The translations under genes and the position numbers were made by a program. The notes beneath the pieces are model-generated. The model saw only the letters and a program-made list of their open reading frames with translations. It was not told the DNA's origin and ran no database searches. From the NCBI RefSeq assembly GCF_022846255.1, contig NZ_AP025682.1: DNA of 64,000 nucleotides. The stretch is one strand, 5' to 3'. Below, piece by piece: positions 23,637 through 23,903 of the stretch; the first letter of the stretch is position 1; every line of letters starts with the position of its first letter. Origin of the DNA: Escherichia coli (GTDB lineage Bacteria > Pseudomonadota > Gammaproteobacteria > Enterobacterales > Enterobacteriaceae).

Positions 23637-23903
23637 ATGGAATGGCTGGTCAAAAAATCGTGCTGCAATAAACAAGATAACAGACATGTAATTATGCTCT
23701 GCGATGCTGGCGGCGCGATAAAAATGATCGCCGAAGTGAAGAGTGACTTCGCCGTGAAAGTGGGGGATTTACTCTCGCCTTTGCAGAATGCGCTTTACTG
23801 TATTAATCGTGAAAAGCTGCACACGGTGAAAGTCCTTTCTGCAAGCTGTTATAGCCCCGATGAGTGGGAACGGCAGTGTAAAGCGGCAGGGAAAACTCAG
23901 TAA
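23637..23903 (+). CDS. pmrD: PmrD connector protein (links PhoPQ to PmrAB/BasRS)
   Basis: ORF 23607..23903; in-frame ATG at 23637 gives [15 protein letters not shown]..., 88 aa. Confidence 0.85.

Follow-up and report, generated by a model that had tools for sequence, protein, structure and literature searches.

The window, i.e., the whole analysed stretch of 64,000 nucleotides of Escherichia coli DNA, contains the arnBCADTEF operon and, on the opposite strand, pmrD. The two transcription units meet tail to tail. The elements around their junction are listed here; RefSeq annotation is that of E. coli strain 2012C-4502, shifted by +14499 to give positions in the window.

22172-23527, + strand: menE (RefSeq annotation)
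23528..23636, + strand: menE-pmrD intergenic region with the pmrD promoter (alignment A3, terminator scan, literature)
23637..23903, + strand: pmrD, 88 aa, PhoP-activated connector protein (NF011994 equivalog, PDB 2JSO/4HN7, annotation)
23897..23903, shared by both strands: 7-nt overlap, TCAGTAA on the + strand (sequence, open reading frames, RefSeq annotation of 2012C-4502 and K-12)
23897..24283, - strand: arnF, 128 aa, last gene of arnBCADTEF, Ara4N-undecaprenyl-phosphate flippase subunit (NF002816, annotation)
24283-24618, - strand: arnE (RefSeq annotation)
24615-26267, - strand: arnT (RefSeq annotation)
24283..31247, - strand: rest of the arn operon upstream of arnF (arnE, arnT, arnD, arnA, arnC, arnB; annotation of 2012C-4502)

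The pmrD-arnF gene pair and its junction

The gene identities given in the first-pass annotation are borne out by equivalog models, structures and annotation alike. PmrD (family PF11183/NF011994) scores 177 bits against the NCBIfam equivalog NF011994 (cutoff 96) and aligns end to end with the 88-residue solved structures 2JSO/4HN7, and ArnF scores 140 bits against the equivalog NF002816 (cutoff 99). Because the equivalog models and, for PmrD, the full-length structures match, both genes are genuine; misannotated stop codons were rejected on the same grounds. The NF011994 profile spans residues 1-85 of the 88 residues of PmrD, so that the last three codons, which extend into the overlap, are not part of the conserved core, and the C-terminus is the least conserved part of the PmrD alignment (A1). 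Likewise, NF002816 spans residues 4-122 of the 128 residues of ArnF and leaves the last six residues outside.

The sequence around the junction reads ...GGGAAAACTCAGTAACGTTG... On the + strand the PmrD frame ends with AAA ACT CAG TAA, the TAA stop codon occupying 23901-23903, and on the - strand the ArnF frame ends with TAC TGA, the TGA being the reverse complement of TCA at 23897-23899. Two genuine coding genes on opposite strands thus share the seven 3' nucleotides 23897..23903 and the intergenic space is zero, as read directly from the letters and from the list of open reading frames. The overlap of the stop codons, already described in the first-pass annotation, recurs in the RefSeq annotation of 2012C-4502 (coordinates as listed above), and K-12 MG1655 is annotated with an identical 7-nt overlap (arnF 2372892..2373278, pmrD 2373272..2373538). 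The overlap is therefore already known, both from the annotation of K-12 and RefSeq genomes in general and from its publication as an excludon entry.

A 1.2-kb query around the junction is 100% identical to strain 2012C-4502 and the region was found in 5,419 of the 5,426 complete E. coli genomes, in all of them on the chromosome. Compared to K-12, the window proteins share 96.6% (PmrD) and 99.2% (ArnF) amino acid identity. The pmrD/arnF allele of the window (23500-24700) is rare: at least 99% identity is reached in 10 of these 5,419 genomes, most others being at about 98.3%. Public data also hold many PmrD length variants, ranging from 55 to 103 aa.

Upstream of pmrD, in the menE-pmrD intergenic region, the motif GTTTATCTGTTAATCTGTAAAT at approximately 23581-23602 is conserved in Escherichia, Salmonella and Citrobacter (alignment A3). 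The pmrD promoter is PhoP-dependent (PMC2565834) and the motif is a putative PhoP box. A convincing match to a PmrA box was not seen by eye in the E. coli pmrD promoter in the same alignment.

Transcript ends on both sides of the junction

Because a spacer is lacking, each mRNA necessarily continues into the other gene. The overlap of pmrD and arnF transcripts is supported by this logic and by published RNA-seq. An mRNA for the full-length protein has to extend beyond the opposite stop codon, as was reasoned in the first-pass annotation, which makes a transcript overlap of at least 7 nt a logical necessity, and the transcript boundaries of the pair overlap in at least 50% of 58 MG1655 transcriptomes (PMC12288877). 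Among the supplementary data consulted from the Adams 2021 Term-seq and the SMRT-Cappable-seq studies, there are no entries for pmrD, arnF, menE or arnT. The further claim that the junction leaves no room for terminators is right as far as intergenic space is concerned, but it ignores terminators embedded in the opposite coding sequence, of which the window holds one weak candidate for pmrD. Such embedded terminators are common in overlapping pairs; a rho-independent terminator is predicted for at least one gene in 21 of 58 E. coli convergent overlaps (PMC2174442). Three stretches downstream of the stop codons are relevant here.

23579..23896, - strand: arn read-through path past the arnF stop codon, antisense to all of pmrD and its promoter (terminator scans, fold, composition)
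24026..24091, + strand: candidate embedded intrinsic terminator for pmrD and men read-through (fold, own scan)
24264..24341, + strand: most C-rich, G-poor 78-nt stretch on the pmrD read-through path, with C 31 and G 11 (composition scan)

A consensus scan returned no terminator-like site beyond either stop codon, and a bidirectional intrinsic terminator (a GC-rich hairpin with an A-tract and a U-tract) was not found at or just beyond the stop codons. On the arn path, a hairpin and T-run scan of 14 loci revealed no conserved canonical terminator and the 271 nt after the arnF stop codon fold no better than shuffles (z = -0.11). Inside arnF, approximately 90 nt before its stop codon, a perfect 6-bp GC-rich hairpin (CTTCCC-GGCT-GGGAAG; 23989-24004, - strand) is followed by a T5 run that is present on the arnF sense strand only. 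It was rejected as a terminator, being probably a chance match with a T-run that is broken in E. albertii.

On the pmrD path, a long, imperfect hairpin (24026-24084, core stem 24040-24069) is located approximately 185 nt past the pmrD stop codon, antisense to arnF codons, and is directly followed by UUUUAUA (24085-24091), which corresponds to about 2373084-2373090 in K-12. The fold of the surrounding 211 nt (23890-24100) has a z-score of -2.37, 5 of 200 shuffles folding as well, and the 11-bp hairpin core is kept in all 14 distinct aligned sequences. Yet, the consensus scan did not call this site, its total of 5 terminator sites exceeds the 2.2 expected from shuffles only modestly, and the outer stem and the clean U-run are restricted to Escherichia. 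Covariation of the hairpin is no better than in shuffles (103/500) and is confounded by coding, since the stem encodes conserved ArnF residues; the hairpin was therefore not accepted as an RNA element and is a weak candidate for an embedded pmrD terminator.

If such sites were efficient in both directions, each transcript would stop inside the other coding sequence and the overlap would be short, fixed and inconsequential. The candidate hairpin and its conserved core are in line with this possibility, as are the embedded terminators predicted among the E. coli convergent overlaps (PMC2174442) and the TransTermHP terminators that lie inside the neighbour's transcription unit in 146 of the 165 convergent excludons of MG1655 (PMC12288877). 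We nevertheless consider it improbable that embedded intrinsic terminators confine the overlap at this junction, given the shortcomings of the pmrD candidate and an arn path that offers nothing comparable; moreover, an overlap of 185 nt would still be substantial.

A further feature of the downstream paths is their composition. Both contain mostly more C than G and range mostly between the 71st and 92nd percentile of the window, with some dips; on the arn path the C-G excess is persistent (47th-92nd percentile, mostly 71st-92nd). The 78-nt stretch at 24264..24341, antisense to the arnE/arnF junction, ranks in the top percentile when all windows of this length, on either strand of the 64-kb stretch, are compared and may serve as a Rho loading region. 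Such C-rich, G-poor paths would fit Rho-dependent termination. In addition, no terminator-like site was found between menE and pmrD in the terminator scan, and men-operon read-through probably adds to the antisense transcription of arnF. An independent cis-antisense sRNA was rejected as a further source of antisense RNA: an Rfam scan of 15000-33000 gave no match at the gathering threshold (three sub-threshold matches are all away from the junction) and promoter-like sites, of which there is a single one (- strand, 23653 to 23626), do not exceed what shuffled sequence would give.

Convergent overlaps in E. coli and in related genera

The window contains six convergent pairs of coding sequences, of which pmrD/arnF is the only overlapping one. 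The other five are separated by 38-140 nt.

ubiG/yfaL: spacer of 140 nt
yfaE/inaA: spacer of 53 nt
pseudogene/yfaU: spacer of 40 nt
nudI/ais: spacer of 38 nt
yfbM/nuoN: spacer of 66 nt

With five of six pairs being spaced, the overlap of pmrD and arnF represents a minority state, but it is not exceptional and belongs to a known class. Convergent overlaps of coding sequences in E. coli were counted at 58 by Lillo and Krakauer (2007; PMC2174442), who found them to fit a model of stop-codon mutation, and at 75 by Huvet and Stumpf (2014; PMC4161906). Similar to these short tail-to-tail overlaps, which are explained by stop-codon mutation and extension, the pmrD and arnF stop codons are a few nucleotides apart on opposite strands and the overlap is within unconserved C-terminal codons. 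There are two differences. The commonest convergent overlap measures 4 nt (CTAA, TTAA, CTAG or TTAG) compared to 7 nt here, and pmrD and arnF are partners in one regulatory pathway. At the transcript level, 276 of 370 convergent E. coli operons (about 75%) give complementary 3' ends, whose overlap averages 286 nt (Conway et al., 2014; PMC4161252). The pmrD-arnF pair resembles these operons in that absent or inefficient termination leads to complementary 3' transcript ends. Whereas those pairs mostly have an intergenic spacer and a leaky terminator, pmrD and arnF have no spacer, and their transcript overlap is thus obligatory and not a result of leakage.

The neighbourhood of yfaU (34000-38600 of the window; NZ_CP027440.1 1364897-1368464) shows decay in the strain's annotation: it comprises an rpnE pseudogene with an internal stop codon, a partial hypothetical coding sequence and an IclR-family regulator that is truncated and overlaps the gene of an MFS transporter.

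The junction was compared across genera by means of a PmrD alignment followed by a scan of one genome per species, yielding 18 loci, with one S. enterica locus added by exact-protein lookup. In all genomes of this set in which pmrD and arnF are both intact and adjacent, the two genes converge with essentially zero spacer, as detailed below.

E. coli: 7-nt overlap, TCAGTAA
E. albertii: 7-nt overlap, TCAGTAG
S. enterica and S. diarizonae: 6-nt overlap, TCATGA
Citrobacter sp. On2M (L014): distance 0
Most Citrobacter: 2-3-nt gap
C. amalonaticus S646 (L007): 9-nt gap

In Escherichia, Salmonella and Citrobacter the ends of the coding sequences thus either overlap, by up to 7 nt, or leave a gap of up to 9 nt: tight abutment is a conserved trait, whereas overlap as such does not appear to be one. 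A variable distance combined with overlap codons outside the family profiles is the signature of stop-codon drift in abutted genes, and the comparative data would accordingly favour such drift over a tuned device. The persistence of a spacer of at most 9 nt in three genera could, in turn, be due to selection for coupled transcription and not just to tolerance. PmrD itself evolves fast, the E. coli protein being 55-60% identical to its Salmonella and Citrobacter counterparts, and no extra RNA-level constraint on pmrD was seen in this comparison.

Three genomes retain pmrD after the loss of most or all arn genes, i.e., Intestinirhabdus alba, Escherichia sp. MOD1-EC7003 and 'E. coli' SCPM-O-B-8794. 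The remnants differ among them. In SCPM-O-B-8794 (locus L005, 3001-3700) about 22 C-terminal arnF codons are left with ais as the next gene, and a 10-nt deletion at the junction extends the pmrD reading frame. MOD1-EC7003 (L003, 3001-4000) carries a reading frame in which an arnT fragment is fused to arnF (aa 39-128), followed by ais. In I. alba (L019, 3001-4114) the gene order is menE-pmrD-ais-yfaY and arn genes are lacking.

In Klebsiella, the arn operon and pmrD are at separate loci (L022, 2501-3222; L023, 2501-3455; L024, 2501-2746); these loci were taken from records that are labelled plasmid but are in fact chromosomes. The arnF gene of K. pneumoniae has a 4-nt convergent overlap with an apparently split reading frame of an AI-2E-family transporter, and that of K. 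aerogenes a 32-nt convergent overlap with psf-1. The arn operon thus tends to end in a convergent overlap, whichever gene is its neighbour. K. pneumoniae pmrD is flanked by a hydrolase gene and amn; it lies upstream of the latter, with a spacer of 130 nt. Since the PhoP-PmrD-PmrA connector pathway works in Klebsiella (PMC2565834) with the genes unlinked, the pmrD-arnF arrangement is not needed for it.

PmrD-like reading frames (35-39% identity to E. coli PmrD, approximately 75-100 aa) are also present on true Klebsiella and Enterobacter plasmids, such as L025 3001-3300 (NZ_CP074172.1 7044-7343), NC_011282.1 84101-84340 and about 15 other plasmids. They are mostly annotated as hypothetical, and at least one carrier (pJBIWA003_2) is typed as a conjugative IncFII plasmid. 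Their occurrence fits the view in the literature of pmrD as a horizontally mobile gene.

Regulatory and non-regulatory readings of the overlap

The pair has a published precedent as an overlapping transcription unit. Sanmartin et al. (2025, NAR; ExcludonFinder, PMC12288877) include arnF-pmrD in their Table 1, in a set of 165 convergent excludons from MG1655, and point to it in the text as a pair from the same pathway. The idea of overlapping transcription at pmrD-arnF is thus not new, having been published in 2025 as a list entry and in-text example. Our analysis shares with that entry the gene pair, the idea of a convergent overlap and the possible interference and RNase III processing. The entry concerns K-12 MG1655, whereas the window stems from a different E. 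coli strain; it is a listing without a locus-specific experiment, and the pair described here is known from its sequence. The literature on pmrD in connection with Term-seq, transcriptional interference or antisense RNA yielded nothing beyond the ExcludonFinder entry.

A functional reading would regard the junction as a convergent excludon with cis-antisense feedback. PmrA-driven read-through from the arn operon would lower PmrD and provide a negative feedback that is independent of a PmrA box, and PhoP-driven transcription of pmrD, together with men read-through, would conversely dampen or truncate the arnT-E-F end of the arn operon, in both cases through the collision of polymerases and the cleavage by RNase III of the RNA duplex formed. 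Several observations speak for this reading: the published listing highlights the shared pathway, the arn path has no terminator and only about 300 nt separate the arnF stop codon from the pmrD promoter, the abutment is conserved in three genera, and a need to limit PmrA output has been documented (PMC2565834). In addition, a PmrA-dependent repression of pmrD has been reported for Salmonella with its converging genes and not for Klebsiella with its unlinked ones (PMC2565834).

The same evidence can be read differently, however. An excludon call requires overlapping transcript boundaries and is trivially reached by any expressed pair of overlapping coding sequences, while validation by p19 dsRNA capture is not feasible for convergent pairs (PMC12288877); the list entry aside, the literature searches returned no study on interference between pmrD and arnF. 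The feedback in Salmonella has been attributed to PmrA acting at the pmrD promoter and the Klebsiella pmrD promoter lacks a PmrA box (PMC2565834), which explains the species difference in pmrD repression without antisense effects. The fast evolution of pmrD shows no sign of an additional constraint at the RNA level, and some Escherichia genomes and Intestinirhabdus keep pmrD after the loss of arn. Finally, PhoP induces pmrD and PmrD promotes PmrA-dependent arn transcription, so that both are co-induced in low Mg2+ in Salmonella (PMC2565834) and are not mutually exclusive. Taken together, we regard a functional excludon as unlikely, albeit less so than a confinement by embedded terminators.

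Regulatory convergent systems do exist; examples cited in PMC4161252 and PMC12288877 are the Enterococcus pCF10 switch prgQ/prgX and the excludons of Listeria. Similar to these systems, the opposing units overlap at pmrD-arnF, and collision and antisense pairing could set expression levels. For prgQ/prgX and the Listeria excludons, reciprocal expression and its dependence on the overlap have been shown by experiment, whereas pmrD and arn are co-induced and were compared here at the level of sequence. Established knowledge of the pathway argues against a reciprocal, mutually exclusive expression of pmrD and arnF.

A more specific proposal is that the convergence without spacer constitutes a second, promoter-independent arm of the negative feedback from PmrA to pmrD in Escherichia, Salmonella and Citrobacter. 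Here, PmrA-activated, unterminated arn transcription would cross pmrD together with its PhoP promoter and restrict the synthesis of PmrD, and the effect would be lost where the genes are unlinked, as in Klebsiella, in agreement with the report that pmrD is not repressed in a PmrA-dependent manner there. Repression in Salmonella and its absence in Klebsiella would also fit interference by arn transcription, but we deem the existence of such a dedicated second arm rather improbable.

We consider it probable that the junction is an ordinary, drifting tail-to-tail overlap between the end of arnBCADTEF and pmrD rather than a dedicated regulatory device. Stop-codon movement in two tightly abutted genes would have produced the overlap. 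The arn transcripts, for lack of an intrinsic terminator, most likely run antisense through pmrD and possibly up to its promoter, after which Rho would end the untranslated read-through RNA. In the opposite direction, pmrD transcripts, probably together with men-operon read-through, would run antisense into arnF and end either at the weak embedded hairpin and U-tract, approximately 185 nt past the pmrD stop codon, or farther along through Rho. This would leave the 3' ends complementary, a state shared by most convergent operons of E. coli, and any interference from colliding RNA polymerases or from RNase III acting on the duplex would likely be a modest side effect. We infer the involvement of Rho, the extent of the read-through and the small size of the regulatory effect. 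The mutual interference between pmrD and arnF suggested in the first-pass annotation is plausible but unproven. What counts against an ordinary overlap is the shared pathway and the co-induction, by which collisions would occur exactly when both genes are needed.

If the overlap does couple expression, it would add a cis-acting layer to the PhoPQ-PmrD-PmrAB circuit that controls polymyxin and colistin resistance and could help explain species differences in feedback. In either case, expression data for pmrD and arnF that are not strand-specific mix sense and antisense signal, and chromosomal edits such as tags or deletions at the 3' end of one gene necessarily alter the other. Table 1 of the K-12 excludon list also contains pmrR-basS, another convergent pair of the PmrA/PmrB network (PMC12288877), and tail-to-tail overlaps thus recur in the PmrA/PmrB regulon.
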